From a virus, in IMG/VR virus record IMGVR_UViG_3300047174_000111, positions 1 to 64,000 of that record: DNA of 64,000 nt, one strand, 5' to 3'. Positions 3,392 to 37,519 of this stretch are shown in pieces; the first letter of the stretch is position 1, and each line of letters starts with the position of its first letter. The position numbers were made by a program, and so were the translations under genes. A model generated the notes under the pieces. It was not told where the DNA came from, ran no database searches, and saw only the letters and a list, made by a program, of their open reading frames with translations.

Positions 3392-3392
3392 C

Positions 3393-3958: not shown

Positions 3959-3962
3959 GATT

Positions 3963-4036: not shown

Positions 4037-4040
4037 GAAT

Positions 4041-4126: not shown

Positions 4127-4130
4127 CATC

Positions 4131-4206: not shown

Positions 4207-4210
4207 TCAT

Positions 4211-4290: not shown

Positions 4291-4293
4291 TCT

Positions 4294-4369
4294 GCACGCG
4301 TAGCAATCCAGCGATTGCACCTGCCTGTCGAGCAGGATCAGGCGGGGGCGGCACCCGTCGCGTGCGCCA
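4294..4369 (+). tRNA. tRNA-Asp(GTC)
   Basis: CCTGC-CTGTCGA-GCAGG anticodon arm, G73, CCA end. Confidence 0.85.
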
Positions 4370-4454
4370 CGTTCCCGCTCCACGGCCTCGGCCGCGCCGG
4401 GCTTGCAAGACCTGTCGCAAGGCAGGCCGGTTCCCATCGGGGACCGCGAGATTT

Positions 4455-4522
4455 GCCCTCGCCGATGGACGGCGCCTGGTTTCCTAAACCGGGGTGCGGC
4501 GGTTCGATCCCGCCCGAGGGCA
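4455..4522 (+). tRNA. tRNA-Arg(CCT)
   Basis: Loop TTCCTAA, canonical T-arm, short D region. Confidence 0.75.
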
Positions 4523-4526
4523 TTAT

Positions 4527-4598
4527 CAGTGCGTGGGTCAAAGGCTGACCGCCAGTTTTGGGTACTGGATCATGCAGGTTCGAGTCCTGCCGCACTGA
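4527..4598 (+). tRNA. tRNA-Pro(TGG)
   Basis: CCAGT-TTTGGGT-ACTGG anticodon arm, C1-G72, A73. Confidence 0.85.
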
Positions 4599-4657
4599 GG
4601 GCGACGAGTGTGCCGCGCGCACGGCTGTCCTACAAACAGCAAGACGGGGGTTAAAAG
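4599..4657 (+). pseudogene. tRNA-Val(TAC), truncated at the T-arm by IS607
   Basis: GCTGT-CCTACAA-ACAGC anticodon arm, then GGGGGTT running into the IS left end. Confidence 0.6.
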
Positions 4658-22135: not shown

Positions 22136-22492
22136 TTAAGCCGAGCGGCGCGCGCAGGTGTTCCGCTGCTGTTGGGCGCGATCGTAGGCATCTCGGAAGG
22201 GCTTGCAGTGCTCGCACCAGAGATAGGCCCCGACGCGGCCTTCAGCCTCGTGCTCGCGATGTTGGGCCGCCGAGTAGGCCGCTAGGTAGGCGGCGTCGTA
22301 GCGGCGCCAGCGGGCCCAGACGTGGGCTTCCAGCCGAATCGCCTCCTGGTTGCCCCAGTTGTGGACGAGGCCGCTGTCACCATTGGTTGCGGCGTGGGCG
22401 GCACAGGTCAGTGCGCGCCTCGCGCCCATTGCGTGACGGAACGCTCGACACATGCGCTCGTAGAGTTGAGTGCAGGTCAGCTGCTTGGGCAT
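22136..22492 (-). CDS. Hypothetical protein (array gene)
   Basis: GGAG RBS inside HHR1; ends at the terminator. Confidence 0.7.
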   Translation of the reverse strand: MPKQLTCTQLYERMCRAFRHAMGARRALTCAAHAATNGDSGLVHNWGNQEAIRLEAHVWARWRRYDAAYLAAYSAAQHREHEAEGRVGAYLWCEHCKPFRDAYDRAQQQRNTCARRSA

Positions 22493-22497
22493 TAGGT

Positions 22498-22553
22498 GCT
22501 CCTTGTCAGGCCGGCGATGATGCCGGCGACCCGGCGAGGCCGGGTTTCGGAGC
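22498..22553 (-). ncRNA. Hammerhead-like HHR1 (core CUGACAA)
   Basis: GCTCC-GAAA-CCCGG/CCGGG-TC-GCCGGC/GCCGGC-CTGACAA-GGAGC; the 5-bp stem II covers the SD. Confidence 0.7.
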
Positions 22554-22555
22554 GG

Positions 22556-22993
22556 TCAGGCGGCGCCGCGCCGCAGCCACGCATCGAACAGGTGGAAAAG
22601 CGGTTGCGGTAGCTCGCCGCGATACCAGGCGGTGTCGAAACACCAGCTGCCGCCCGGCCATTTGACTTGCGCGATCTCGCGATCGTAGGCGAGGCCGCCC
22701 AGACGTGCGCGCGGGCGGATGCGATGCTCGTAGGCCTCGAAGAACCTGAAGCGTTCGGGCAAGCACTTGCCGTCGCGCTCACTGAAGGCATTCGCGATGC
22801 GCGAGAGCACCGCCTCCGAGGCGTTGGTGATCGACGGCCCCTGATTATCGCGCAGATCGATAATCAGCACCCATGTGACGCCGTCGACGGTGGTGTCGGC
22901 GACGCCGAACGTGGTGGGAAGGCCCGCCGGAGGCATGGCCGTGAGGCGATTGACCTGGATAGCAGGTGGTTCCGTCGTAAGGGTTTGGGTCAT
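22556..22993 (-). CDS. Hypothetical protein (array gene)
   Basis: Bounded by HHR2 and HHR1; IIDL...PSITNA.E.V motif. Confidence 0.7.
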   Translation of the reverse strand: MTQTLTTEPPAIQVNRLTAMPPAGLPTTFGVADTTVDGVTWVLIIDLRDNQGPSITNASEAVLSRIANAFSERDGKCLPERFRFFEAYEHRIRPRARLGGLAYDREIAQVKWPGGSWCFDTAWYRGELPQPLFHLFDAWLRRGAA

Positions 22994-22997
22994 TGGT

Positions 22998-23049
22998 GGC
23001 TCCTCAGGCCGGCGTGACGCCGGCGACCCGGCCGAAACCGGGTTTCGCC
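22998..23049 (-). ncRNA. Type II hammerhead HHR2 (canonical CUGAGGA)
   Basis: GGC-GAAA-CCCGG/CCGGG-TC-GCCGGC/GCCGGC-CTGAGGA-GCC. Confidence 0.85.
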
Positions 23050-23051
23050 TC

Positions 23052-23252
23052 TCAGCGATCGACGACGCGGATCAGCAGGAAGGCCTCGCCGTTCTGGGCA
23101 TCGCCCTGGACCTCGTCGAGGGCAAGCGAAAGCCCTTCGGGGCCCTCGTCATCGATGTTGTCAATCAGCGATCGCATCTGATCGCGCGTCATGTCGAAGC
23201 CGCGCCAGTTCTCCGGCTCCTTGCGGGGCCAGGAGGTGTCGTTGTCGTCCAT
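23052..23252 (-). CDS. Small acidic hypothetical protein (array gene)
   Basis: ATG after the GGAG of HHR3. Confidence 0.65.
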   Translation of the reverse strand: MDDNDTSWPRKEPENWRGFDMTRDQMRSLIDNIDDEGPEGLSLALDEVQGDAQNGEAFLLIRVVDR

Positions 23253-23260
23253 GGTGATCT

Positions 23261-23307
23261 CCTTGTCAGGCGGCAAATCGCCGCGACCCAGCGAGGCCGG
23301 GTTTCGA
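23261..23307 (-). ncRNA. Hammerhead-like HHR3 (core CUGACAA)
   Basis: C-GAAA-CCCGG/CTGGG-TC-GCGGC/GCCGC-CTGACAA-G. Confidence 0.65.
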
Positions 23308-23310
23308 TAA

Positions 23311-23700
23311 TCAGCCCCAGCGCGCGTCGGCCAGGATCTCCGTGGTCTTCGCCACGATCTCATGAGCGTTCGGCCATTGCCAGACCTTGGCCAGCGCGAT
23401 GGACTGCCAGACGTTCGGCAGGCTCCCATGTCCTTTCGGAAACAGCGCTTCAATGTGGATGTAAATCCCTTCATTGGAGCCCTCCACCGCAAAACATGCG
23501 ATCCAGCGCGCATCTGACGGCCACGGCATGCTGTCATATCGGTTTTGGTTTACCGAGTTGATGTAGCTCAAGTCGGAGAATTCGCTTTCTCCGAATTCGA
23601 TCTTCATATCCTTGAGCCGCGCGTTGATCTGCTGGATCACTTCGCGGCATGTCAGCCCATCGACCTTGATTCGGCCGACGGTGATGGTGCTTCCATTCAT
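23311..23700 (-). CDS. Hypothetical protein (array gene)
   Basis: Bounded by HHR4 and HHR3; GSNEGIYIHI motif. Confidence 0.7.
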   Translation of the reverse strand: MNGSTITVGRIKVDGLTCREVIQQINARLKDMKIEFGESEFSDLSYINSVNQNRYDSMPWPSDARWIACFAVEGSNEGIYIHIEALFPKGHGSLPNVWQSIALAKVWQWPNAHEIVAKTTEILADARWG

Positions 23701-23708
23701 GATGGTAA

Positions 23709-23754
23709 CTCCTCAGCCCGGCGGAATGCCGGGGACCCGCAGGGGCGGGTTTCT
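23709..23754 (-). ncRNA. Hammerhead HHR4 (CUGAGGA; A precedes GAAA)
   Basis: A-GAAA-CCCGC/GCGGG-TC-CCCGGC/GCCGGG-CTGAGGA-G. Confidence 0.75.
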
Positions 23755-23760
23755 CTGTTG

Positions 23761-24003
23761 TCAGGCCGCTTTGTCGGCGCCCTCATGGATGAAGTAGCGG
23801 TCGCCATCGCGGCGGACCTTGCCAGCACGCTCCAACCCACTCATCAGGCTGGTGAACTGGCTGTAGCTGCAGCCGTGCTGCATCAGCGCGGCGTAGAGCG
23901 GGCCACCCGGACAGCCCGTTGGGCCGGCCGCCTTCACGGCATCGAGGGTGGCATCCACGACTAACCCAAGTGCTTCGCGCTGCTGCGCTGTCATCTGAGG
24001 CAT
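23761..24003 (-). CDS. Small winged-helix-like hypothetical protein (array gene)
   Basis: AAGGAG RBS; bounded by HHR5 and HHR4. Confidence 0.7.
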   Translation of the reverse strand: MPQMTAQQREALGLVVDATLDAVKAAGPTGCPGGPLYAALMQHGCSYSQFTSLMSGLERAGKVRRDGDRYFIHEGADKAA

Positions 24004-24017
24004 CGTATCACTCCTTC

Positions 24018-24065
24018 ATCGTCAGCGCCGGCGATATTGCCGGCAGACCCGCGTTGCGGGTTTCG
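24018..24065 (-). ncRNA. Hammerhead HHR5 (CUGACGA)
   Basis: C-GAAA-CCCGC/GCGGG-TC-TGCCGGC/GCCGGCG-CTGACGA-T. Confidence 0.75.
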
Positions 24066-24067
24066 TG

Positions 24068-24610
24068 TCACGCGGCCTCCTCTGTGGCAGCCTCCAGTTC
24101 GACCCGTTCGACTGGCACGCGGGCGAACGGGGTGTTCGCCAGCATCCATTGGCGCAGGCTCTTGAGCAGCGCGCCCTGGCTCGACGCATCCGCCGGCTCG
24201 ACGACGCGGCCGCGGTATTCAATTGCGGTCAGGGCGTCGCGCGCGGTCCGGCGATACAACTCGCTGCCGTGGAGATAGACCTCGGGGATAGGGGCCTCGA
24301 GACCCATGTTCCATCGGAGCTGACCCAGGTAATGCGGCATGCGGCTGAGCATGCGTGCTCGCGCTGCATCGAGCTTGCGCTCGTACGTCACGATCGGCGT
24401 GCCGGTGTGGATGAAGCCATGAAGGGCCGAAAGCACCACAACCCAGGGAATGCGGTGCTGCATCGGGTCGTTGGGCTTGTCGAGCTTGTCCTGGCATTTT
24501 CGGTAGGTGCGCCATGACGGCCCGTCGTAGACTTCGAAGGCCGGCTTCGGCGTGACGACGTGCCGCTTGGTCTGTGAGCACGCCATGATCAACGCTCGTT
24601 CGATTGGCAT
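24068..24610 (-). CDS. DUF6884/YaaA-like protein (array gene)
   Basis: IMACSQTK...A.EVYDGP...VLSALHGFI...YERKL. Confidence 0.6.
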   Translation of the reverse strand: MPIERALIMACSQTKRHVVTPKPAFEVYDGPSWRTYRKCQDKLDKPNDPMQHRIPWVVVLSALHGFIHTGTPIVTYERKLDAARARMLSRMPHYLGQLRWNMGLEAPIPEVYLHGSELYRRTARDALTAIEYRGRVVEPADASSQGALLKSLRQWMLANTPFARVPVERVELEAATEEAA

Positions 24611-24620
24611 AGGGTTTCTC

Positions 24621-24664
24621 CTCTTCAGGGCCCCGGATTGGGGCGACCCGCAGGGCGGGTTTCG
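24621..24664 (-). ncRNA. Hammerhead HHR6 (CUGAAGA)
   Basis: C-GAAA-CCCGC/GCGGG-TC-GCCCC/GGGGC-C-CTGAAGA-G. Confidence 0.75.
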
Positions 24665-24665
24665 C

Positions 24666-25520
24666 TCAGTCGGCCGCGTCCTGGAGCGCATCGACGGGTA
24701 CGTCCAGTGGGACATACTCGGCGAGCGCGCCGGCCGCATCCGCATTGTGCGCCGTGAGAAGCGCGATCCGGTTACCGAAGTCCATCCGTTGCCAGGCGGG
24801 CTTCGCCTTTTCGCGCGCCTCCCGCTGGCGCAGCTTCCAGTTCCAGCCGCCCAGGATATGGGCGGGCGTGTACCACACCTCGTCGAACTCATTACGGAGA
24901 GTGTCGCCGCGGTAGATCATGCAGGGGATGTGCATGAGCGAAGCCTGGACGTAGGTCATGTGGACGCAGCGACGGTCGATGTCGGCAGCGGTGACGTGCA
25001 GCGTCTGCTGGTAATTGACATCGCGATCCGACAGCGCATCGGCCATGGCGACAATCATGCCGCCGGGGCCGCAACAGGGTTCGCAGGCGGTGACGAAGCC
25101 ATGCTGCTCGATGACCTCTTTCATCGCATCGGCATAGACCATCGTCGCCATCATCTTCGACACGCTGTAGGGCGTGAAGAACTGGCCGTGCCAGTCGCCT
25201 CGCAGCTCAAGGCCTGTCCATATCGCCCCCATTACATCGCGGGGGTGCGCATCGAGCACCGTCGTGACGTCTCCGAGCAGTGTGGCGATCACCGCCAGCT
25301 CCTCGGCCTTGTAGCCCTTGGCAATTTCGAGGTAGCGTTTCTCGCGCTTCTCGCGCTGCTGCAGGTCGACCGCGTTGCTGATGGCGATGGCGGCCATCTC
25401 GACGAAATCGCCGAAGACGGTCTCGGGGCGGTGACTGTCCAGGCTCTTGATGTTCGAGACGATAGAATTGATCCGCGCCTCCGGCGTGAGCAGGATTGGC
25501 GCTTTTTTCTTGGCGGACAT
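24666..25520 (-). CDS. N6-adenine DNA methyltransferase-like protein (array gene)
   Basis: GQFFTPY, EPCCGPGGM, ADID, GDTL motifs. Confidence 0.8.
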   Translation of the reverse strand: MSAKKKAPILLTPEARINSIVSNIKSLDSHRPETVFGDFVEMAAIAISNAVDLQQREKREKRYLEIAKGYKAEELAVIATLLGDVTTVLDAHPRDVMGAIWTGLELRGDWHGQFFTPYSVSKMMATMVYADAMKEVIEQHGFVTACEPCCGPGGMIVAMADALSDRDVNYQQTLHVTAADIDRRCVHMTYVQASLMHIPCMIYRGDTLRNEFDEVWYTPAHILGGWNWKLRQREAREKAKPAWQRMDFGNRIALLTAHNADAAGALAEYVPLDVPVDALQDAAD

Positions 25521-25527
25521 AGGTTTG

Positions 25528-25573
25528 CTCCTCAGGCACGCGGGATGCGTGCGACCCGGCAAGCCGGGTTTCG
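25528..25573 (-). ncRNA. Hammerhead HHR7 (CUGAGGA)
   Basis: C-GAAA-CCCGG/CCGGG-TC-GCACGC/GCGTGC-CTGAGGA-G. Confidence 0.8.
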
Positions 25574-25577
25574 GAGG

Positions 25578-26144
25578 TCACTCGATCAACTTGATCCACG
25601 AGGTGTAGTCGGGCGACATGATCATCGTGACGAAGGCTTCAGTGCCTGGAATGCCCTGCCGCGCGTTGTACCGGGTGGGCTGCTCGAGGCCGTAGAAGTT
25701 CTTCAGGGCCTTCTTGCTCCACAGGCAGTAGCCTTCCTCGATCAGTTCATGGGCGCGCCGGCCGATCGAGCCGGGCGCGAACCAGCATTCGCCGGTGTTG
25801 ATCTGGCGCTGCCAGAAGGCGATGAGCTGCTTCGCGTTGGCCGGCAGGACGTCGTTGATCTCGTCGGTCAGCGCTTGGGCGGTGTCGAGTTCCAGTGCAG
25901 CGAGGACGGTGACGCGCTCGCCGAACGGCATGTTGCGCCAAACGGCGCCGGTCGTCAGGAACGAGTGCTCGAAGTAGGCCTCGCGCTGCTCCTGCGTGGC
26001 CGCGTGGGACGCGACGACATGGGGCTTGCGCGTGCCGTCGGGCAGCTTCTCGACGATCATGACGTTCGAGACGCACTCCTCGACCAGACTGGATGCGGCG
26101 AGCTTTGACTGCTCGTCGTCGCCCAGCATGACGATATGGTTCAT
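25578..26144 (-). CDS. Hypothetical protein (array gene)
   Basis: WQRQINTG..W...GSIGR.A.ELIEEGYC; bounded by hammerheads. Confidence 0.7.
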   Translation of the reverse strand: MNHIVMLGDDEQSKLAASSLVEECVSNVMIVEKLPDGTRKPHVVASHAATQEQREAYFEHSFLTTGAVWRNMPFGERVTVLAALELDTAQALTDEINDVLPANAKQLIAFWQRQINTGECWFAPGSIGRRAHELIEEGYCLWSKKALKNFYGLEQPTRYNARQGIPGTEAFVTMIMSPDYTSWIKLIE

Positions 26145-26149
26145 GGGAT

Positions 26150-26209
26150 ACTCCTCAGGCCGGCGGAATGCCGGCGACCGGCCCGGCCATAGGCCTGGGC
26201 AGGTTTCGT
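26150..26209 (-). ncRNA. Hammerhead HHR8 (CUGAGGA)
   Basis: AC-GAAA-CC..long stem III..GG-TC-GCCGGC/GCCGGC-CTGAGGA-GT. Confidence 0.8.
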
Positions 26210-26802
26210 CACGCCGCGAGGCGCAAAGGCTCCTCGGCGCGGGCCGCGACTGCTTGCTCAACAGCTGCGTCCTTTTTCCGCCCGGTTTTCTTGTCGTAGT
26301 CGGCTTTCCAGACGACTGGGTCGGCGTGCTCCGGGTTGACCTTGATCGAGGCCCGCCAGACAGCCCAGACGTCGCGGTCGCGCAGCTCAGGCACAACAGT
26401 GCAGGTCTCCAGCTTCATTTCGAAGCTGCTGATCTCCACGCCATGCGGGATGATGCCGCCCGGCCAGAACTCGGCATGAGGGATGAACTGGTCACGCGGC
26501 ATCCGGATCGTGGTGCCGCGCTCGCTTTTGTAGCTGGCCTGATCCTTCTTCAGCCGCCCCCACCGTCCCGCGTCGCATACCTGTCGGAACATGTAGCGCG
26601 GGCCGTGCCGATTCATCGCGTTGGCTTTCGCGGCGGCGAGCAGCTTGCTGAACAGCTCGCCGCGCGCCATGCGCCGAGGCTTGGCAAACGGTGGCTCGCC
26701 GAGGCTGAGGCCGGCCCTTTCCCGTAACACCGGAGGGCAGTATGGCATCATGTCGGCTATGAGCTGCGCGACCTTCTGGGTCTGCGTCAGTGCTTTGGGC
26801 AT
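26209..26802 (-). CDS. Basic hypothetical protein (array gene)
   Basis: ATG after the GAGGAG of HHR9. Confidence 0.7.
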   Translation of the reverse strand: MPKALTQTQKVAQLIADMMPYCPPVLRERAGLSLGEPPFAKPRRMARGELFSKLLAAAKANAMNRHGPRYMFRQVCDAGRWGRLKKDQASYKSERGTTIRMPRDQFIPHAEFWPGGIIPHGVEISSFEMKLETCTVVPELRDRDVWAVWRASIKVNPEHADPVVWKADYDKKTGRKKDAAVEQAVAARAEEPLRLAA

Positions 26803-26809
26803 GGTCTTG

Positions 26810-26862
26810 CTCCTCAGGACCGCGGGATGCGGTCGACCGCCCCTGGCGATGGGGCGGTTTCG
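26810..26862 (-). ncRNA. Hammerhead HHR9 (CUGAGGA)
   Basis: C-GAAA-CCGCCCC/GGGGCGG-TC-GACCGC/GCGGTC-CTGAGGA-G. Confidence 0.8.
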
Positions 26863-27068
26863 GAGCGGAGGCGTCATTCCTCCTTGGGCTGTTGCACCAG
26901 ATCGGAATCGCGATCGACGGCGGCTTGTTCTTCAGCGGTCAGCCTGCCAGCGAGCCGGTCGATCCCATCGTCACGATCGTCGTCGTCAAGCCATTCGATG
27001 ATGTCTTGCGCGCTTGGCACGATTTCTTCCGGACTGAAAGTGCGAAACTTTCTGCGCCGAGGGATGCC

Positions 27069-27284
27069 TCAGCTTCCAATTTCGATATTCAACTGCTCGG
27101 CGTCTTCCAGCGCGAGCACAATGCCTTCTGGATGTTCGTAGCGCGCGCTGAGATCGGAACCGACAGGATAGACGGAAGCGTCTAGGCGCGTGGCTGCATC
27201 TACGTCCTCAACGTGTAGGATCAGAATGTCTCCGTTTTCATTCCTTCTCCCGAAGAATGAGCCGTATTTGTCGCTGTAGGCCAT
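27069..27284 (-). CDS. Small hypothetical protein (array gene)
   Basis: AAGGAG RBS from HHR10. Confidence 0.7.
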   Translation of the reverse strand: MAYSDKYGSFFGRRNENGDILILHVEDVDAATRLDASVYPVGSDLSARYEHPEGIVLALEDAEQLNIEIGS

Positions 27285-27292
27285 TATTTTCT

Positions 27293-27337
27293 CCTTTTCA
27301 GGCCACAGGATTGCGGCGACCCCTCGCGGGGTTTCGG
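27293..27337 (-). ncRNA. Hammerhead-like HHR10 (core CUGAAAA)
   Basis: CC-GAAA-CCCC/GGGG-TC-GCCGCA/TGTGGC-CTGAAAA-GG. Confidence 0.65.
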
Positions 27338-27348
27338 GTCAGTCAACG

Positions 27349-27600
27349 TCAGGCCGCGACGGGCGCGTCCTTCGATGCCGCAGGCCACGGCAGGCTCTCG
27401 GCGACGCCGGCGAGATGGTAGATCTCCATCGGTGTCACTCCAGGCGGCGCTTCCAGGCGACAGGCGTTGCGCGCAAAATGCACGGTGGCTTGGGGGGAGC
27501 CTGTAATGGCGTTTTCCGCCAGTCTCTTGAGGTGTGGAAACTTGGTCACGTAGGCGCCAAGGACATGGGCCGGGATAGGACCAGGTGTTTGAGATGGCAT
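27349..27600 (-). CDS. Small hypothetical protein (array gene)
   Basis: Bounded by HHR11 and HHR10. Confidence 0.65.
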   Translation of the reverse strand: MPSQTPGPIPAHVLGAYVTKFPHLKRLAENAITGSPQATVHFARNACRLEAPPGVTPMEIYHLAGVAESLPWPAASKDAPVAA

Positions 27601-27608
27601 ATTTCTCT

Positions 27609-27653
27609 CCTTTTCAGGCAGCTCGATTGCTGCGACCCCTTTTGGGGTTTCGG
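27609..27653 (-). ncRNA. Hammerhead-like HHR11 (core CUGAAAA)
   Basis: CC-GAAA-CCCC/GGGG-TC-GCAGC/GCTGC-CTGAAAA-GG. Confidence 0.65.
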
Positions 27654-27654
27654 C

Positions 27655-27897
27655 TCAGTCGAAAGTGGGCTGCAGTCCTGCCCAAGCTTGGCATGCTCGA
27701 TCTCTCCAATCCGCAACCATGTGACGGCCGGCCGGCGAACTTTCGGGATCGTCTATGACGATCCCGTTAGATTGGCAGAACGAAATGAGAGCTGATTTCG
27801 AGTTCGAATTATACCAGTTTAGGGCCGCTTCATACGCATCGAAGCTCGGGAACCGGAAGAAAGCACCCGTCTCATCGTGCTGATATTCGTATGTCAT
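27655..27897 (-). CDS. Small hypothetical protein (array gene)
   Basis: Bounded by HHR12 and HHR11. Confidence 0.7.
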   Translation of the reverse strand: MTYEYQHDETGAFFRFPSFDAYEAALNWYNSNSKSALISFCQSNGIVIDDPESSPAGRHMVADWRDRACQAWAGLQPTFD

Positions 27898-27907
27898 AAG
27901 CGTCTCT

Positions 27908-27958
27908 CCTTTTCAAAACCTGCTCATCTGCAGGCGACCCGGCCAAGCCGGGTTTCGG
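27908..27958 (-). ncRNA. Hammerhead HHR12 (U3-A8 covariant core UUGAAAA)
   Basis: CC-GAAA-CCCGGC/GCCGGG-TC-GCCTGC/GCAGGT-T-TTGAAAA-GG. Confidence 0.7.
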
Positions 27959-27959
27959 G

Positions 27960-28211
27960 TCAGTCGATTGGAACGAGCGGTCGCCCCGTCCGGGGCGCAC
28001 GGTCGTCCGCCTCGTCGAGGCGGGTGACAACCATTGTATTGTGTCGGCCCTGCTTGTCAACGGCCGTCATCACGGCAGGCTCGCCGGTCAGCAACATGTT
28101 GACGAAGCTGACCCAGCTGCGGGTCGTGTTGGCCGTCCGTCCCAGGCTGTGGGCCGTCATCTCGATCGGCCGCTGGCCCGGACAGGTAACCTTGAACTTT
28201 TGCGGGTTCAT
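27960..28211 (-). CDS. Small hypothetical protein (array gene)
   Basis: ATG after the GAGGAG of HHR13. Confidence 0.65.
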   Translation of the reverse strand: MNPQKFKVTCPGQRPIEMTAHSLGRTANTTRSWVSFVNMLLTGEPAVMTAVDKQGRHNTMVVTRLDEADDRAPRTGRPLVPID

Positions 28212-28220
28212 TGTAGTCTG

Positions 28221-28273
28221 CTCCTCAGGCACCGGGATTGGTGCGACCACCCGGGCAGACCCAGGCGGTTTCG
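28221..28273 (-). ncRNA. Hammerhead HHR13 (CUGAGGA)
   Basis: C-GAAA-CCGCCTGGG/CCCGGGTGG-TC-GCACC/GGTGC-CTGAGGA-G. Confidence 0.8.
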
Positions 28274-28738
28274 TCACGCCGCGATGCGTTCAAGGACGGG
28301 CAGCGGCATCAGGCTGGGCAGCTCGATTGACAGGGCCAGCGCGCAGTCGGCGCCGGCGTCGTTCAGGATCGAGAGCCGCCGACCGAAGTCAAACATCTCC
28401 CAGCGCGGCTCGGCTTGGTCCTCCAGCTCGGCGCGGTACGTGTCCTCGTCGAGGATGCATCGCGTCGCCTGTTCGCACAGCTCCAGGGCCATCTGCGCAG
28501 CCACGGCCATGCCGGGGAAGCAGATCAACGCCGCCTCGCAGTCGCGTGGGTCGAGGTCGATCAGCTTCGCGGCATGGCGTCCGAAGATGCTGCAGACCCG
28601 CAGCGTGATGGCTGCGGCCTGGGCCCGGTCGAGCGGGCACGATGTGTCGAACGTCGATACGGAGAGCCAGTCCTGTTGGCGGTCTGTCGCATAGACGCGC
28701 CAGGGGAAATCCCTGACGTGTCCCATGGCGCATTGCAT
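28274..28738 (-). CDS. Hypothetical protein (array gene)
   Basis: Bounded by HHR14 and HHR13. Confidence 0.7.
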   Translation of the reverse strand: MQCAMGHVRDFPWRVYATDRQQDWLSVSTFDTSCPLDRAQAAAITLRVCSIFGRHAAKLIDLDPRDCEAALICFPGMAVAAQMALELCEQATRCILDEDTYRAELEDQAEPRWEMFDFGRRLSILNDAGADCALALSIELPSLMPLPVLERIAA

Positions 28739-28747
28739 GGATATCTC

Positions 28748-28793
28748 CTCTTCAGATCCGCATCAGTGCGGATGACCCGCTAGGCGGGTTTCG
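28748..28793 (-). ncRNA. Hammerhead HHR14 (CUGAAGA)
   Basis: C-GAAA-CCCGC/GCGGG-TC-ATCCGCA/TGCGGAT-CTGAAGA-G. Confidence 0.8.
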
Positions 28794-29342
28794 TCAGAAG
28801 CTCTCGTGCAGGATCATGTACGTCAGGTCGGCCAGGTCGTCTTGGCAGGTGCCGGTGATGGGAAGATCGTCGTCGAGTGCCAGCGCGGGATCCGCGTCGA
28901 CGTGCTCGGCCAGCGCGACCCGTTCGCCGAATGGCAACGAGCGCCACTTGCGGCGCGCGAAGGTCCTCGCGGCGCGGTCCTGTTCCGGACCGGCGATGCA
29001 TTCACCGCCGCCGCAATTGCAGGATTCGAACGTCTCGTTCATGGCCTCGATCAGCGCGCGGAACTGCCATTGCAGCCCGGGCCGGACGACGAGAACCCGG
29101 GTGCCGGCCGCGTCGCGGACGATCATGTAGCCGTCCGGGTTCGGCTCAGCCTCCCGCATACAGACGATCCAGGCACCGATGCCGCGGGTGTCCTGTCCAT
29201 CGCTAAACAGGTGAAGCACGATGATCCAGTCGGGCGGCGGCTTCGGCGTGAGATAGTCGCCGTTCCCGATCGGGCGAGGCAGCGGCAGCATGCCGTCGAT
29301 CTCGTCGTCAGGGACGGCTTCGTCGCATGTCAGATACGACAT
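28794..29342 (-). CDS. Hypothetical protein (array gene)
   Basis: Bounded by HHR15 and HHR14. Confidence 0.7.
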   Translation of the reverse strand: MSYLTCDEAVPDDEIDGMLPLPRPIGNGDYLTPKPPPDWIIVLHLFSDGQDTRGIGAWIVCMREAEPNPDGYMIVRDAAGTRVLVVRPGLQWQFRALIEAMNETFESCNCGGGECIAGPEQDRAARTFARRKWRSLPFGERVALAEHVDADPALALDDDLPITGTCQDDLADLTYMILHESF

Positions 29343-29348
29343 GGGGTG

Positions 29349-29398
29349 TCTCCTCGGGCAGCGTGATTGCTGCGACCCGCTCCTCAGGCGGGTTTCGA
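29349..29398 (-). ncRNA. Hammerhead-like HHR15 (core CCGAGGA)
   Basis: TC-GAAA-CCCGC/GCGGG-TC-GCAGC/GCTGC-CCGAGGA-GA. Confidence 0.65.
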
Positions 29399-29403
29399 TT
29401 GGG

Positions 29404-29535
29404 TCAGATGATGGACAGCACAGCCAGCAGGGTCAGCACGCCGCAGAACTCGCTGACGGCGGGGATGAGCATGATGGCGAGGCAGATGCCGGCTGCGGAC
29501 ACGACCAGCGCGGCCGCAGCGGCGATCCAGCGCAT
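29404..29535 (-). CDS. 43-aa hydrophobic membrane peptide (array gene)
   Basis: MRWIAAAAALVVSAAGICLAIMLIP...; ATG overlaps the upstream stop. Confidence 0.55.
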   Translation of the reverse strand: MRWIAAAAALVVSAAGICLAIMLIPAVSEFCGVLTLLAVLSII

Positions 29536-29726
29536 CAGCGCGTCTGGGCCGAGCCGTCCAGGGTCTTCAGCTTGACTCTCCCCTTGCGGGCCTCGATCTC
29601 GGCCAGCTCGGGCGACATCTCGATCGGGATGCCACCGTCGTAATACCAGCAGCGCGCGTGACCGGCCGTGAAGCGACGCATCACGGTGATGATCGGGGCG
29701 CGCTGCGGGCGCGGGCGGGCTTTCAT
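29535..29726 (-). CDS. Small basic protein (array gene)
   Basis: ATG after the GAGGAG of HHR16. Confidence 0.6.
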   Translation of the reverse strand: MKARPRPQRAPIITVMRRFTAGHARCWYYDGGIPIEMSPELAEIEARKGRVKLKTLDGSAQTR

Positions 29727-29732
29727 CTCAGT

Positions 29733-29799
29733 TCTCCTCTTCTGGCCGGCGGAATGGCCGGCGACCCGATCGGCGCGCGGCCGGGCGGGTTTCGGAAGA
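29733..29799 (-). ncRNA. Hammerhead-like HHR16 (core CAGAAGA)
   Basis: TCTTCC-GAAA-CCCG..CGGG-TC-GCCGGC/GCCGGC-CAGAAGA-GGAGA. Confidence 0.6.
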
Positions 29800-29821
29800 T
29801 CAGGATTCTGTCGTCGTGATT

Positions 29822-30103
29822 CTACAACAACGGCGAAACCCGGAAGCATCTCACCAGTCTTGTGTAATTCATCGGTGCTGGATTACCGTCGAGCGTGAAC
29901 CAGCACAGTCGGTATTCGTGAACCACGATTGGTGGCCAATGCTCGTTCGGCAGGCTGAGGGTTTTCCGAAAGCCCGGCGACAACTTAAAGACCAGCCAAA
30001 TAAACGGTTCGTTCTTACCTTGCATAAAGGCCACAAGGTAAATTCCAGCGCGATGCAATGGATTTTCGCGTTCAGCTTGCGTCCATTCGGCTTCGCTCAT
30101 CAT
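29822..30103 (-). CDS. Hypothetical protein, start uncertain (array gene)
   Basis: ORF between HHR17 and HHR16; the RBS-linked ATG at 30129 is out of frame. Confidence 0.4.
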   Translation of the reverse strand: MMSEAEWTQAERENPLHRAGIYLVAFMQGKNEPFIWLVFKLSPGFRKTLSLPNEHWPPIVVHEYRLCWFTLDGNPAPMNYTRLVRCFRVSPLL

Positions 30104-30137
30104 CGACAGGATGTCTCTTCGTTACACATATGGTGTT

Positions 30138-30187
30138 TCTCCTCATGCGGCGCAATGCCGCGACCCTGCCCGTAGGCAGGGTTTCGA
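30138..30187 (-). ncRNA. Hammerhead-like HHR17 (core AUGAGGA)
   Basis: TC-GAAA-CCCTGCC/GGCAGGG-TC-GCGGC/GCCGC-ATGAGGA-GA. Confidence 0.65.
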
Positions 30188-30424
30188 TCAGTCGAGATCT
30201 ATTGGCCGTCCTTTGAATGTCCGGTTGGCGCATTCCATCGCGGCCATAATGGGATCGGCCTCACGGCCGTCCTGCTCACTGCCGTCTGGGCATTTCAGTG
30301 TCCAGCGGCCATCGGGATAGACCTTCTCGACGAAGCCATAGCGCTTGCGAGCCGCCACGGTCTGGCCGACGGCCCAGCCGGCGTCTTTCAACGCCCTCTG
30401 GGTGCCCGGCTTGAACTCGCTCAT
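30188..30424 (-). CDS. Small hypothetical protein (array gene)
   Basis: ATGA overlap with the upstream gene. Confidence 0.6.
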   Translation of the reverse strand: MSEFKPGTQRALKDAGWAVGQTVAARKRYGFVEKVYPDGRWTLKCPDGSEQDGREADPIMAAMECANRTFKGRPIDLD

Positions 30425-30732
30425 GCCTCGGCGTCCATCTCCTCGTCGATCTCGTCCTGGTCCTGCTTGGCGCATTCGACCCACGACCAGGTCTGCACGA
30501 AGAACCCGTCTTCGCCTTCGCTGACAGCGGCGCCGGCATCATCGATCTCCAGCTCTTCGCTGGTCTCGACCATGGCGATTTGCCAGGGCTTGGCGAGCGA
30601 TGCGCGCCATTTCTCGATAATGGCGGCGGCCTGCTCGGCATAGGGGCTGGCGGCGTCGTTGGCGATTTGAGCGAGAAGGTTCACCGCGTCGGCGGCGGGT
30701 GCGAACGTGATGTCGAATGGTTCGATTGGCAT
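30421..30732 (-). CDS. Acidic hypothetical protein (array gene)
   Basis: ELEIDD..AVSEGEDGFFVQTWSWV; RBS from HHR18. Confidence 0.7.
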   Translation of the reverse strand: MPIEPFDITFAPAADAVNLLAQIANDAASPYAEQAAAIIEKWRASLAKPWQIAMVETSEELEIDDAGAAVSEGEDGFFVQTWSWVECAKQDQDEIDEEMDAEA

Positions 30733-30740
30733 TTGGTGTT

Positions 30741-30788
30741 CTCCTCATGCAGCGGGATGCTGCGACCCTGCGCGGAGGCAGGGTTTCG
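30741..30788 (-). ncRNA. Hammerhead-like HHR18 (core AUGAGGA)
   Basis: C-GAAA-CCCTGC/GCAGGG-TC-GCAGC/GCTGC-ATGAGGA-G. Confidence 0.65.
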
Positions 30789-31283
30789 TCAAGGTTGCCA
30801 CTTGCGATCGGCCGTATCCAGCGGCCCCCAGGTCGGCTCGTTGGTCTGGTATGCTAGCGTTTCATAAACGCTTGCGAACAGCCGTCGGAAGTTATCGCTC
30901 CCGCCTCTTGCGAACTCCTGGAGGGAGTGGCGCCGTCCCGCCATACGCAGGACCACGTGGTCGTCTTCAAAATCAATCTGAACGACCGTCAAGCTGGAAC
31001 GCACCCACTGATGGCGGCCGGCGCCGTCAGTAGTGTATCCGCAGCAGGCTTTCGCCTCAGCCGGAAGGACAGCGGCAACCGCGCGCCGGACGCCAGCAGT
31101 GGCGACAAGCACCTTTCCTGGCCACCACCATGGGATCAGGTCGATCCCCTCTGGGGCAAGGCTCATGTCGAACGGCACGTGGCCGATCGACGTCCCATAG
31201 TAACCCTCATGGGCTTCCGCCCACTCGGCCACTTCGTCGCGGGCGGCGGCGATATTGCTGGCCTTGGCAACATAAAGCATCAA
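30789..31283 (-). CDS. Hypothetical protein (array gene)
   Basis: Bounded by HHR19 and HHR18. Confidence 0.65.
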   Translation of the reverse strand: MMLYVAKASNIAAARDEVAEWAEAHEGYYGTSIGHVPFDMSLAPEGIDLIPWWWPGKVLVATAGVRRAVAAVLPAEAKACCGYTTDGAGRHQWVRSSLTVVQIDFEDDHVVLRMAGRRHSLQEFARGGSDNFRRLFASVYETLAYQTNEPTWGPLDTADRKWQP

Positions 31284-31288
31284 TTTTT

Positions 31289-31342
31289 CTCCTCATGCAG
31301 CGAAATGCTGCGACCCGCAGCCCCGAAAGGCTGCAGGTTTCG
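31289..31342 (-). ncRNA. Hammerhead-like HHR19 (core AUGAGGA)
   Basis: C-GAAA-CCTGCAGCC/GGCTGCGGG-TC-GCAGC/GCTGC-ATGAGGA-G. Confidence 0.65.
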
Positions 31343-31353: not shown

Positions 31354-32553
31354 TCAGATCTGGTTGCGGGTCGCGCGCGACATGAGCTTCGTCGCGACCT
31401 TTTCGATCTCCAGTCGGCGATCGGTGTTGGGCACGGTTCGAGCGACTGCAGTGATCCCGTTCACCATGTCCCAGATGCTCTCCGGTTCACGGCCTTCTTC
31501 GCGTTCGTGGGTTTCGAAGATGGTGTCGACCATCTTCATCGAGAAATCGAGCCCGACGAGCAGCTTCTTGCGCTCGTCCTTGTCAGCGCCGGCCTTGGTC
31601 TCCTTGCAGACCTTGATCCCTGCGAGCAGGGCGGTCGGCTCGGAGCGGGCGTAGCGCTCCAGGGCGGGCTGGGCCTCGCGTTCGAAACGCAGCGAACCGT
31701 GCTTCGAATGGACGATGCTCAGCTTCTCGAAGTTCTCCACGCCCCACATCGTTCTGTTTTGGCAAACGCCGCGCAGAACGAAGGTGGCAATGCCCAAAGC
31801 ACGAGTCCCCACTTCGGAGTTGAAGGCATAGAACCCACGGAACACGAGATCGGGATCGCCATTGGCGAGCTTGCCGATCTCGAGTGGCCGCGTGTCGTCG
31901 ACCAGGAACATGAAGACGTCCCGGTCGGACGCGTAAAGCGTCGTGGACTGCTTGGTGACATCGACGTAGGGGTTGTAGGTCATCGCCCTCCAGTCGATGC
32001 ATCCGGGGATCTTCCAGTGGGTATCGCCCGTCCCGTTCCCGGCGATGCGCTGGACGGCCGCGACCAGTTCCGCATCATAGATGCGGCCATAATCGGGGCC
32101 GGTGACAGCACGCAGCGAGAATTCCTCGCTTTCGCCGAACATCTTCATCGGCATCTCGGTCCCGCGTCTGACGAGACCGTGCTGCAGATTGATCGCGGCG
32201 AGCGGAGCCGGCAGGTCGCGCAGATAGGATGCCGGAGCCTTGACCAGCGAACACATCTGGCCGAACGAGTGGTGGGTCGGCGTCAGCGTGCGGCCTTCCG
32301 GCGTGATCACCCGCAGCATGTCGGGATCGTCGCGTCGTGCGTCGATCTTGAGGTCCGACATCGACACGAGTTCCTCGAACGAGGTATCGCGACGCTTGCC
32401 CACGGCCTCGGCCAGGGCGTTCAGCGATGTGTATCGCTGATCGTCCGGGCGCGAGAACCATTGCTTGGACAGGTCGCCACGAGCCTCGCCGCGGCTCACG
32501 TCGATGCTGCGGGTGCCCACCGTGCCGGGCGCGGCTGGCGTGATCATGTTCAT
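31354..32553 (-). CDS. DUF932-like protein (array gene)
   Basis: IDVSRGE...WFSRPDDQRY, LRAVTGPDYGRIYD, LYASDRDVF, NSEVG...VCQNR. Confidence 0.75.
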   Translation of the reverse strand: MNMITPAAPGTVGTRSIDVSRGEARGDLSKQWFSRPDDQRYTSLNALAEAVGKRRDTSFEELVSMSDLKIDARRDDPDMLRVITPEGRTLTPTHHSFGQMCSLVKAPASYLRDLPAPLAAINLQHGLVRRGTEMPMKMFGESEEFSLRAVTGPDYGRIYDAELVAAVQRIAGNGTGDTHWKIPGCIDWRAMTYNPYVDVTKQSTTLYASDRDVFMFLVDDTRPLEIGKLANGDPDLVFRGFYAFNSEVGTRALGIATFVLRGVCQNRTMWGVENFEKLSIVHSKHGSLRFEREAQPALERYARSEPTALLAGIKVCKETKAGADKDERKKLLVGLDFSMKMVDTIFETHEREEGREPESIWDMVNGITAVARTVPNTDRRLEIEKVATKLMSRATRNQI

Positions 32554-32563
32554 GGGAACATCT

Positions 32564-32624
32564 CTCTCTTCAAGCCGGCAAAATCGCCGGCGACCCGCAT
32601 CCTCCTCTGTATGCGGGTTTCGAA
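32564..32624 (-). ncRNA. Hammerhead HHR20 (core UUGAAGA)
   Basis: TTC-GAAA-CCCGCAT/ATGCGGG-TC-GCCGGC/GCCGGC-TTGAAGA-GAG. Confidence 0.7.
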
Positions 32625-32653
32625 CCGGAGTCACATAAAAATGTGACTCCGGT
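32624..32653. promoter_or_regulatory. 13-bp inverted repeat containing CACAT-N4-ATGTG
   Basis: ACCGGAGTCACAT-AAAA-ATGTGACTCCGGT. Confidence 0.6.
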
Positions 32654-37003: not shown

Positions 37004-37066
37004 CTCGTCAGGCCTGGGATTTCACCAAGCGACCGGCCGGCCCCTTTCGAGGCGCAGCAGGTTTCG
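37004..37066 (-). ncRNA. Hammerhead HHR21 (CUGACGA)
   Basis: C-GAAA-CC..GG-TC-GCTTGG/CCAGGC-CTGACGA-G. Confidence 0.7.
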
Positions 37067-37067
37067 A

Positions 37068-37457
37068 TCAGGCCGCGACCAGGTCGCGCTCGGCGAGGTC
37101 CAGCGCCTCGCAGGAGGTTGGCCGGAATTCGTGGCGACGCGGTGTGGCTATGATCTTGATATCGTCAGGCGCTCTCTGCTCGACGGGCGCCGTGAGGACT
37201 TCGACGGCTTCAGGGTCCGATCCGCCGAACTGGCGGCAGACCCAGCCATAGGCATCGCTGACCGGGTCAGCAGCCTGTTCGACTCCGTACGCGATGCCAG
37301 CGCCCGCGAGGGCGACGGTACCGACGACGACCCCGCCGAGGATGAGGACGGGGGCCAGCTCGGTGACCAAAGCGGCCGCACCGAGCGCCGTGCTCGCTGC
37401 GGTTACCACGGAGAACGCGCCGAAGGCGAACTTGGCGGCATTTTCGGAAACGGACAT
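37068..37457 (-). CDS. Membrane protein, paralog B
   Basis: GGGAG RBS; similar to 36538-36927. Confidence 0.7.
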   Translation of the reverse strand: MSVSENAAKFAFGAFSVVTAASTALGAAALVTELAPVLILGGVVVGTVALAGAGIAYGVEQAADPVSDAYGWVCRQFGGSDPEAVEVLTAPVEQRAPDDIKIIATPRRHEFRPTSCEALDLAERDLVAA

Positions 37458-37468
37458 TGGGGTGTCTC

Positions 37469-37519
37469 CCTTTTCAAGCATGCGTTGATGCATGCGACCG
37501 CGGAGTGATGCGGTTTCGG
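37469..37519 (-). ncRNA. Hammerhead HHR22 (U3-A8 covariant core UUGAAAA)
   Basis: CC-GAAA-CCGC/GCGG-TC-GCATGC/GCATGC-TTGAAAA-GG. Confidence 0.75.

Follow-up and report, generated by a model that had tools for sequence, protein, structure and literature searches.

Between the small genes of one early operon in this phage, almost all gaps consist of a miniature hammerhead motif, and the Shine-Dalgarno (SD) sequence of the following gene is made of nucleotides of the ribozyme core and of stem II. The window analyzed spans 64,000 nt (positions 1 to 64,000 of IMG/VR record IMGVR_UViG_3300047174_000111) of a 96.5-kb genome. The reading that we favor, at roughly even odds (about 0.5), is that the spacers are mRNA-processing cassettes with dual-use sequence, built from minimal type II hammerheads. 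Such cassettes would be set as punctuation along a long early or accessory transcript, each filling the entire gap from a stop codon to the following start. With a competent core, cleavage after GUC would divide the polycistronic RNA into mRNAs of one or two genes. Each of these would carry a 5'-OH and the stem I hairpin, directly followed by the SD, at the 5' end, and the stem III hairpin with a 2',3'-cyclic phosphate at the 3' end, a structure that may protect both ends. In fitting the cassette into ~55–70 nt, the lineage would have lost the usual 3' pseudoknot tail and the separate SD, and would have let the purine-rich catalytic strand supply the SD. Two solutions are seen: a G at N7, the sole free core position, turns A6-G7-G8-A9-G10.1 into AGGAG, or the 3' strand of stem II provides GGAG after A9.

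Census and Conservation of the Hammerhead Spacers

Type II hammerhead-like spacers number 22 in the genome and all lie on the minus strand, 20 of them in a single operon (32.6 to 22.5 kb) and the other two near 37 kb. The array reaches position 32622, one copy past the range initially annotated. A dedicated covariance model, run over the whole 96.5-kb genome, found no hammerhead outside these copies, and the absence of extra matches is its informative part because it was built from the same 22 sequences. Rfam RF02276 matches 11 of the 22, with a single copy (H18, 37.9 bits) above the gathering score. Covariation is seen in stems I and III, where 89% of cells are paired versus 70% in shuffles, with none of 500 shuffles reaching the observed value. 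GAAA, A15.1-U16.1, the GUC cleavage site with C17, G5, A6, and A9 are invariant in every copy. These spacers are thus real hammerhead-like folds. The surrounding gene frames are backed by GC3 in 24 of 25 genes, and within a unit one gene runs into the next (ATGA, TGATG), with no plain spacer between them.

Shine-Dalgarno Sequences within the Ribozymes

A perfect AGGAG starts at A6 (N7=G) in 10 copies and at A9 in 8, that is, in 18 of 22, and AGGAG lies 6–9 nt 5' of the ATG in 19 copies. In the first class, with cores CUGAGGAG (six copies), AUGAGGAG (three), and CCGAGGAG (one), AGGAG corresponds to A6-G7-G8-A9-G10.1. In the second, comprising CUGAAAAGGAG, CUGAAGAGGAG, and CUGACAAGGAG (two copies each) and CAGAAGAGGAG and UUGAAAAGGAG (one each), it runs from A9 to 10.4 as the 3' strand of stem II. 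No alternative SD was seen at the AGGAG spacers, and by its sequence and placement AGGAG is probably an SD of the working type. The initial annotation had stated that the core supplies the SD shortly before the start codon, and this is what we find on the minus strand at the positions it named. Its second statement, that the SD elsewhere forms a strand of stem II, holds for the location, but usually only one or two of the SD bases are paired. As it also described, the upstream stop codon generally ends 0–12 nt before the CGAAA, measured here to C11.1 (18 of 19 junctions, the remaining one at 27 nt).

Individual copies (all minus strand) are given below as spacer, C17, SD, and ATG. The canonical core CUGAGGA is found in H7 (28209..28273; 28245; 28225-28221; 28211), H11 (26800..26862; 26835; 26814-26810; 26802; 34.9 bits), H12 (26142..26208; 26176; 26155-26151; 26144), H13 (25518..25573; 25553; 25532-25528; 25520), and H18 (22991..23047; 23025; 23004-23000; 22993), the last with a 3-bp stem II. 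In H11, an alternative pairing of the 5' flank GCUCC with GGAGC, core bases included, is possible, and the gene after H13 is N6-methylase-like. H16 (23698..23754; 23734; 23713-23709; 23700) also reads CUGAGGA, with an A at 11.1 that mismatches G10.1. The A3 variant AUGAGGA occurs in H1 (31278..31342; 31312; AGGAG 31293-31289, A6 to 10.1; 31280), where 11 nt separate the end of the upstream stop from C11.1, in H2 (30730..30788; 30764; 30745-30741; 30732), where the stop UGA abuts C11.1, and in H3 (30127..30186; 30162; 30143-30139; 30129), whose ATG opens only a 9-codon mini-ORF overlapping the ATG (30103) of a 93-aa ORF. H5 (29340..29397; 29374; 29354-29350; 29342) has CCGAGGA (U4C), and its loop III holds a second CUGAGGAG (29387-29380).

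CUGAAGA is the core of H6 (28736..28793; 28774; 28749-28745, A9 to 10.4; 28738), a canonical copy whose upstream stop abuts C11.1, and of H14 (24608..24664; 24645; 24622-24618; 24610), which has one extra C after stem I. H4 (29724..29794; 29763; 29738-29734, A9 to 10.4; 29726) carries CAGAAGA (U4A) and a 4-bp stem II. UUGAAAA, with a compensated U3-A8 pair, is found in H8 (27895..27957; 27936; 27910-27906; 27897), which has an extra U after stem I, and CUGAAAA, in which G8A is uncompensated, in H9 (27598..27652; 27634; 27611-27607; 27600) and H10 (27282..27336; 27318; 27295-27291; 27284). CUGACAA (G8A) occurs in H17 (23250..23306; 23285; 23263-23259; 23252) and in H19 (22490..22549; 22528; 22503-22499; 22492), the last copy of the array. 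The SD of H19 is, as annotated, fully paired, by a 5-bp stem II (GCUCC/GGAGC, within 22549-22502).

Four copies depart from this scheme. H0 (32551..32622), the first spacer of the operon, has the core UUGAAGA (U3.G8 wobble), a GUC cut site at 32592, and a weak purine SD (AGAGAG, 32569-32564) before the ATG at 32553; a hairpin of 11–13 bp (32653-32624) lies directly upstream. H15 (24001..24065; 24046; 24015-24011; 24003) has the canonical core CUGACGA, a U at 10.1 mismatched with C11.1, and an SD that starts at 10.4. H20 (37455..37518; 37496; GGGAG 37470-37466, from 10.1; 37457), in a separate two-gene unit, has UUGAAAA with the U3-A8 pair. H21 (37004..37066), with the canonical core CUGACGA, serves as an internal control: no start codon adjoins it, N7 is C, and its gene has its own, separate SD (AAGGAG, 36939-35) ~66 nt downstream, with the ATG at 36927.

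Comparison with Other Phages

Few phage hammerheads share this compact layout. Relative to 170 other phage type II hammerheads, a set seeded by a pattern fixing G1.1, C1.2, G2.2, C2.1, and G10.1, N7 is G in 10 of 22 copies versus none of 170 (Fisher p=4e-11), and the SD begins inside the ribozyme in 20 of 22 versus 12 of 170 (p=7e-17). From position 10.1 to the start codon, the median distance is 10 nt here and 25 nt elsewhere (Mann-Whitney p=2e-9), and the SD is downstream of the tail in 109 of 120 other hammerheads. The 22 spacers are, however, paralogues of one another rather than independent events.

The design nevertheless recurs in two other large phage records, G001 (27 copies) and the provirus G002 (12 copies), whose cargo genes are wholly different from each other and from those of the present phage, although the spacers are alike. 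In G001, the C3-G8 pair is absent from 22 of 26 copies, with A3 alone in 15; in G002, stem II has 3–6 bp in 10 of 12 copies and its 5' strand holds the upstream UGA. A further viral contig carries an array of ~10 copies with a related solution, in which the SD GAGG corresponds to G8-A9-G10.1-G10.2.

Core Integrity and Pairing of Stem II

Ten of the 22 cores are canonical, two carry the compensated U3-A8 pair (H8, H20), and ten have uncompensated changes (C3A, U3.G8, U4A/C, or G8A), of a kind rated as low activity in mutational scans (PMC9901934). It may therefore be asked whether most copies cut negligibly, or no longer cut, the twin hairpins and the SD acting as passive punctuation, that is, as mRNA-stabilizing hairpins, as recognition sites for RNases or proteins, or as recombination joints of gene cassettes. 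The changes at C3, U4, or G8 in 10 of 22 copies and the loss of C3-G8 in G001 fit this view, as do the minimal stem II with no tertiary contact, the single core type shared by H8–H10, which flank lower-GC genes, and the association of like spacers with unrelated cargo, which would suit a cassette junction. However, the positions that only a ribozyme needs (G12, A13, A14, A15.1-U16.1, C17, and G5) are the same in all 22 copies, and the invariant core positions show 0 changes in 198 versus 14 in 66 at positions 3, 4, and 8 (p=1e-9). If the core were an ancestral scaffold, its 3' half might be maintained because it is the SD, but A6 is also invariant in the copies whose AGGAG starts at A9. The compensatory U3-A8 in two copies points to selection on the 3-8 pair, and ten cores are fully canonical. 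We thus consider passive punctuation unlikely.

Contiguous stem II has 0–2 bp in 18 of 22 copies and 3–5 bp in H19, H4, H18, and H0, and flank complementarity at stem II over the 22 copies is no better than in shuffled sequence. We sought a pseudoknot between loop I and the tail in this phage and detected none, whereas a published hammerhead whose stem II is a single base pair required its pseudoknot for speed (PMC3088659). The working stem II might instead form across each gene, the core strand of one copy (n) pairing with the GAAA strand of the following copy (n+1), so that excised units would bear a permuted hammerhead able to religate into circular mRNAs. The 10.1-11.1 G-C pair is broken in just two copies, which adjoin, and U10.1 of H15 with A11.1 of H16 would make a Watson-Crick pair. 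Yet the mean pairing of copy n with copy n+1 is 1.42 bp, versus 1.8 within a copy and 1.46 with any non-self copy, the odd copies of G001 and G002 display no such compensation, and spliced or circular products of clustered hammerheads were sought and not found by Perreault et al. (PMC3088659), which makes this scenario highly improbable.

Self-Cleavage and Translation

The initial annotation proposed that the folded ribozyme (stem II and core) hides the SD and that self-cleavage or a terminating ribosome turns on downstream translation. This interpretation is partly supported, but as a complete account we regard it as doubtful. The SD nucleotides are indeed core and stem II nucleotides, and it follows from the established structure of the hammerhead that G8, A9, and G10.1 cannot serve the core and 16S rRNA at once, so that folding and 30S binding are mutually exclusive. 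After cleavage, the 5' fragment would be kept by a very short stem II alone, which would leave the SD free, and, given the known ribosome footprint, a ribosome terminating 0–12 nt before C11.1 would unwind the 5' strand and GAAA. The longer stem II of H19, H4, H18, and H0 and the pairing of the SD strand with the UGA-containing strand in G002 show the geometry that was proposed, and synthetic devices of such logic function in Escherichia coli (PMC5367253). In secondary-structure calculations, opening the SD costs 3.00 kcal/mol in the precursor and 2.23 in the 3' product, 0.78 kcal/mol more before cleavage (Wilcoxon p=0.004).

Against tight masking, this effect is small (~0.8 kcal/mol) and was absent when the same calculation was made for G001 and G002; only one or two SD bases are paired in most copies, and no pseudoknot locks the fold. 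Moreover, nine of the ten changed cores keep a perfect AGGAG, the exception being the weak purine run of H0, although a requirement for cleavage would leave their genes silent; strict dependence of translation on cleavage is therefore unlikely. General rate constants also suggest that the 30S subunit binds faster (sub-second) than hammerhead chemistry proceeds (seconds to minutes). Under the processing-cassette reading, the same five nucleotides would serve ribozyme and ribosome, one at a time in each molecule, and, stem II being very weak, we infer a kinetic competition between folding and cutting on one side and 30S binding on the other rather than a tight off-to-on switch. In this competition, the interference of ribosomes with the ribozyme is probably no weaker than the masking of the SD by the ribozyme.

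Relation to Known Systems

Clustered phage hammerheads have been known since 2011: in prophages, type II copies flank single genes (Perreault et al. 2011, PMC3088659; Rfam RF02276). They cleave multi-gene transcripts in vitro, and a stem II of 1–2 bp is already on record (PMC3088659). The present array shares with them the type II topology (stem II is open, the other two stems are closed), the GUC site, the location between genes of phage accessory or anti-restriction-type operons with several copies per transcript, the short stem II and rare U3-A8 covariation already reported there, and the proposed processing of long transcripts into gene-length mRNAs. It differs by having 20 copies in one operon versus 2–3 in the tested clusters, by lacking a detectable pseudoknot between loop I and the 3' tail, by frequent N7=G and common A3.G8 and C3.A8 cores, and by an SD inside the core or stem II instead of downstream. 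Ribosome-binding sites are not mentioned by Perreault et al. (PMC3088659), and we found no paper describing an overlap of hammerhead core and SD, which appears to be new.

Where bacterial and phage operons couple translation by masking an SD, a stop likewise lies in or beside the strand that pairs with the SD, so that terminating ribosomes could unmask it, a likeness clearest in G002 and H19. Here, by contrast, stop and start are 60–80 nt apart with two stable hairpins between them, and the masking helices are mostly too short to matter. Engineered hammerheads that free an SD work in bacteria (PMC5367253), and these riboswitches and thermozymes follow the logic first proposed for the phage, with the ribozyme tying up the SD until cleavage frees it for the 30S subunit. 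In these devices, which were screened for switching, a type I or III ribozyme masks the SD within a long and stable stem I, whereas in the phage a type II ribozyme provides the SD from its catalytic strand or from stem II; this SD mostly pairs over 1–2 bp and has no evident ligand or signal input. Hammerheads that insulate a 5' end also work in bacteria (PMC6206723); as with RiboJ, the phage spacer would cut off upstream RNA and leave a 5'-OH and a hairpin directly before the ribosome-binding site, in a defined, stabilized, context-independent leader. The ribosome-binding site of RiboJ is a separate downstream part, whereas the phage merges the two, and the phage spacer would also leave a 3' hairpin on the upstream mRNA.

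Organization of the Hammerhead Array

The parent IMG/VR record of the window is 96.5 kb long, about 92% complete, and has a G+C content of about 64%. When the array is read on the minus strand, a hammerhead motif fills almost every intergenic gap. Twenty of the 22 copies of this motif (H0–H19, from 32622 down to 22490) belong to one operon, which starts with a gene of 151 aa at 33120 and extends past H19 into a gene for an ERF-type recombinase; the other two, H20 (37455..37518) and H21 (37004..37066), lie on either side of two 129-aa genes near 37 kb. The elements of a copy follow each other in the order upstream stop codon, 0–12 nt, C11.1, GAAA, stem III hairpin, GUC, stem I hairpin, seven-base core, Shine–Dalgarno (SD) sequence, 6–9 nt, and ATG. 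Third-position GC content (GC3) backs the gene frames in 24 of 25 genes. Genes located inside one hammerhead-bounded unit overlap (ATGA or TGATG), and ordinary spacers are essentially absent from the operon. A scan for promoters and terminators between 18.5 and 38 kb returned counts at or below the shuffled expectation and gave no sign that the array is made of many transcription units.

Several local features were also observed. A sigma-70-like sequence near consensus (TTGACA, 16 nt spacer, TACAAT; 11 of 12 matches) lies at 28033–28060 (minus), within the gene upstream of H8, and is a possible internal promoter. No other match of this kind was found in 19.5 kb, fewer than chance would give. 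The ATG that follows H3 (30100–30129, minus) opens only a mini-ORF of nine codons, which ends in an ATGA overlap with the start codon (30103) of a 93-aa ORF; this mini-ORF could encode a leader peptide with translational coupling or else reflect a frameshift or sequencing error. The genes after H8, H9, and H10 (27069–27897, minus) have a lower GC3 (0.57–0.69 vs. about 0.8) and their spacers have the core xUGAAAAGGAG in common, which suggests that these genes and the spacers upstream of them may have been acquired or duplicated jointly. A perfect hairpin of 11–13 bp at 32624–32653, between the stop codon of the leading gene and H0, abuts the 5′ strand of H0 stem II and might act as an attenuator or extend that stem coaxially. 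Finally, 11 tRNA genes are clustered at 2066–4598 (plus), one of which (2400–2472) barely exceeds the threshold of the selenocysteine-tRNA model.

Secondary Structure and Catalytic Core

The Rfam model of type II hammerheads, RF02276, matched 11 places in the window, all on the minus strand. Only the match at 22991–23050 (37.9 bits) is above the gathering threshold of 37 bits; those at 26800–26865 (34.9 bits) and at nine other places (17–29 bits) are below it, and the remaining copies are unreported. A covariance model built from the 22 copies recovered these same 22, which are its own training copies, and no other credible match in the whole genome. All copies display a type II topology, in the order 11.x-GAAA-stem III-C17-stem I-CUGANGA-10.x, in which stems I and III are present and loop-closed (22/22) and stem II is open-ended. 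Stems I and III, which were also predicted in minimum-free-energy folds, are strongly supported: 89% of their cells are paired vs. 70% in shuffles, none of the 500 shuffles equaled the observed value (in an alignment fitted to the model, which favors structure), and double (compensatory) changes are found in eight of their nine variable pairs.

GAAA (G12–A14), A15.1–U16.1, C17, G5, A6, and A9 are invariant in the 22 copies, whereas core positions 3, 4, and 8 depart from the consensus at 14 of 66 sites (Fisher P = 1e-9). Ten cores are fully canonical, two have the known compensatory U3-A8 pair (H8 and H20), and ten are uncompensated, with A3 (three copies), U3.G8 (one), U4A, U4C, or G8A (four). 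In a comprehensive mutational scan, every single change in the CUGA turn and at G8 resulted in low activity, with the exception of the C3G/G8C swap (PMC9901934). Stem II is minimal: 20 of 22 copies have G10.1-C11.1, 13 have a second pair, and 7 have a third; the contiguous helix extends over 0–5 bp (mean 1.8), and the search for longer or bulged pairing in its flanks gave complementarity and duplex energies no better than those of shuffled sequence. Loop I has a recurring A-A-U-C-C-like motif; no pseudoknot between this loop and the 3′ tail, the form often taken by the tertiary contact that aligns stems I and II, was found beyond the level of shuffled tails in any of the 22 copies. This does not exclude the spacers from the hammerhead class, since about 60% of known hammerheads lack a pseudoknot as well (PMC3088659). 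Natural type II hammerheads with a stem II of 1–2 bp are also documented, the tested one-base-pair case having relied on its pseudoknot (PMC3088659). Considering the core tally, the minimal stem II, and the lack of a detectable pseudoknot together, about half of the copies are likely to be catalytically competent, and the others may be. That the spacers are largely noncatalytic punctuation, whose 3′ half survives as an SD, seems unlikely, because the positions needed only by the ribozyme are perfectly conserved and U3-A8 pairs are present.

The only two copies that break G10.1-C11.1, H15 (10.1 = U, 24018) and H16 (11.1 = A, 23754), are neighbors, and their deviating residues would pair U-A across the intervening gene, in keeping with hammerheads that span and circularize genes through a stem II formed between copies n and n+1. 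The other copies give no support to such an arrangement, their own pairing averaging 1.8 bp vs. 1.42 bp for cross pairing, and we regard it as highly improbable. As side observations, loop III of H5 (29380–29387, minus) contains a second CUGAGGAG and that of H0 (32596–32603, minus) contains GAGGAGG, both of which are SD-like or core-like.

A Shine–Dalgarno Sequence within the Catalytic Strand

The initial annotation had proposed that the ribozyme core supplies the SD in many copies, that the SD forms a strand of stem II in others, and that it closely precedes the start codon, all of which was borne out. In ten copies, all with a G at N7, a perfect AGGAG runs from A6 (A6-G7-G8-A9-G10.1); in eight others it starts at A9 and is made of A9 and the stem II strand 10.1–10.4; the spacer from AGGAG to ATG is 6–9 nt throughout. 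H15 has AGGAG from 10.4 and H20 has GGGAG from 10.1, whereas H0 retains a weak purine run only. H21, which does not adjoin a start, has N7 = C, and the gene's own AAGGAG lies about 66 nt downstream, making this copy an internal control. Altogether, the AGGAG of 19 copies, with its 6–9 nt spacer, and the GGGAG of H20 have the properties of functional SDs, namely at least 4–5 nt complementary to the 16S 3′ end, a position 5–10 nt before the start of a real ORF, and no competing site.

Our preferred reading, to which we assign a probability of roughly one half, is that the spacers act as intergenic cassettes that process themselves and whose catalytic strand has a dual use. Cutting would leave each mRNA with a 5′-OH and a stem I hairpin leader directly before the SD, in analogy to the engineered insulator RiboJ (PMC6206723), and with a 3′ end formed by the stem III hairpin and a cyclic phosphate. 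Competition with ribosomes would then be a by-product, which may tune output.

It had also been proposed that the folded ribozyme hides the ribosome-binding site until cleavage or a terminating ribosome frees it. One part of this proposal stands by structural logic: given the established structure of hammerheads, G8, A9, and G10.1 cannot occupy the catalytic core while they are paired in an SD–anti-SD helix, so that ribozyme and SD functions exclude each other. Strong masking of the SD is thinly evidenced in this phage. Stable pairing of the SD in the uncut state, which defines an SD-masking element, was not observed as a general feature: in the majority of copies one or two bases of the SD are paired, and pairing covers the greater part of the SD solely in H19 (5 bp) and H4 (4 bp). 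In calculations limited to secondary structure, the SD costs a mean of 3.00 kcal/mol to open in the precursor vs. 2.23 kcal/mol in the 3′ product (P = 0.004); this difference, significant though small, is absent in two other viral records of like design, G001 (IMGVR_UViG_3300012974_000540) and G002 (IMGVR_UViG_3300037859_000002). Moreover, a perfect AGGAG is kept in nine of the ten copies with cores of the low-activity type, the tenth being H0 with its weak purine run, a pattern hard to square with cleavage-dependent translation. A switch gated by cleavage or termination seems unlikely. Because 30S binding should generally outpace hammerhead chemistry, ribosomes, instead of waiting for cleavage, may inhibit the ribozyme.

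The use of the same five nucleotides as catalytic strand and SD also fits a natural device in which output is set by a kinetic race. Folding and cutting would compete with 30S binding or upstream termination to determine the output of each gene and the fate of its mRNA, and the core alleles (A3.G8, C3.A8, U3.G8, U3-A8, and the U4 variants) would tune the rate, grading expression along the 20-gene operon. We consider this proposal speculative and rather improbable.

Comparison with Other Hammerheads

For comparison, IMG/VR was scanned with an N7-neutral pattern, and the covariance model then yielded 170 nonredundant type II hammerheads from 106 contigs. N7 is U in 111 of these, C in 50, A in 9, and never G, vs. 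G in 10 of 22 copies here (P = 4e-11). Their start codon is found at a median of 25 nt after 10.1 (interquartile range 21–32), vs. 10 nt (9–11) here (P = 2e-9), and of the 120 that have a recognizable SD, 109 have it on the 3′ side of the pseudoknot tail. Only 12 of the 170 have an embedded SD, obtained by another solution in which G8-A9-G10.1-G10.2 is GAGG; ten belong to a single array and the others to contigs L107 and L141. This array (L069, IMGVR_UViG_3300011423_000022, 800–4600) contains about ten hammerheads with canonical cores, GAGG as SD, and ATG 7–13 nt after 10.1. Its loop I, AAUCGA, is as in the window's phage, and its tail GGGUUC can pair with the 5′ flank GAACC or with GAAUC of loop I.

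Scanning for hammerheads with CUGAGGAG returned only ten viral contigs, and the real hammerheads among them keep a separate SD. In bacterial genomes, the N7 = G pattern gave at least 120 matches, about the number expected by chance, of which only two fold as hammerheads, one with a separate SD (locus L229) and one with an embedded SD (L267). Megablast of the array against GenBank phages gave no match. Furthermore, 39 viral loci with DUF932 homologs and two with methylase homologs lacked such hammerheads, save for one weak match, which indicates that the spacers are not carried along with these genes.

The clustering of hammerheads in phages, and the processing role presumed for them, were published in 2011 (PMC3088659). 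As a function for bacterial and phage hammerheads, reviews since then have offered only "perhaps mRNA processing" (PMC6765202). We found the SD overlap, the use of N7 = G, and the A3 cores neither in these two articles (PMC3088659, PMC6765202) nor through full-text literature searches, whose scope excluded Jimenez et al. (2011, J Biol Chem). The operon is a compact natural test bed, in which a single transcript holds 20 ribozyme spacers that form a ready-made series of core variants, and in which the SD overlap forces RNA catalysis and translation initiation to interact. Its main value is that point mutations can separate ribozyme from ribosome function: changes at G12, A14, or C17 can inactivate the ribozyme while leaving the SD intact, which allows reporter assays to tell the two functions apart cleanly. 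If expression is tuned by cleavage or by ribosome occupancy, these spacers would be the natural equivalent of synthetic parts that join a ribozyme to an RBS, and operon design could draw on them for very short self-processing cassettes of about 55 nt to place between genes. If not, they would still represent a distinct type II subfamily, compact, devoid of a pseudoknot and with an embedded SD, that is mostly missed by Rfam's model.

Related Arrays in Two Other Viral Records

A second-solution pattern search identified two large records of the same architecture, G001 (93 kb, 27 copies) and G002 (a 111-kb provirus, 12 copies). The SD begins within the ribozyme in 18 of the 26 parsed copies of G001, for which the start is 6–13 nt after 10.1, and in 11 of the 12 copies of G002, with starts 10–14 nt after 10.1. 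The cargo proteins of both are unrelated to those of the window's array; as judged from these sequences, it is the spacer design, not the cargo genes, that is conserved among the three records. In the 12 hammerheads of G002, the 5′ strand of stem II holds the upstream stop codon (cUGAUCC-GAAA) and pairs with the SD strand GGAUC, over 3–6 bp in 10 of the 12 copies and over 5–6 bp where this geometry is plainest. G002 is the clearest candidate for an SD masked by a stop-bearing strand, H19 being the clearest within the window's phage.

The cores of G001 are in majority AUGANGA (A3 with G8; 15 of 26), six others being U3.G8 and only four C3-G8; A3.G8 cores are also found in the window's phage and in G002. 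The A3.G8 core of G001 may be an undescribed natural variant or reflect mass inactivation; were the kinetic race to operate, it would be an undescribed working hammerhead variant. A3 is associated with N7 = G (14 of 21 vs. 7 of 39; P = 4e-4, the paralogs not being independent). Loss of C3 possibly frees G8 for the ribosome where G8 is in the middle of the SD, which would explain this association.

The 151-aa product of the leading gene (33120–32665, minus), which has no Pfam family, stands alone among the array proteins in having a detectable relative in G001 (L324:15396–15641); the two share 26.6% identity over 94 aa (E = 4e-4, small database). The gene of this relative directly follows the first hammerhead of G001. 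The protein may be functionally tied to hammerhead arrays.
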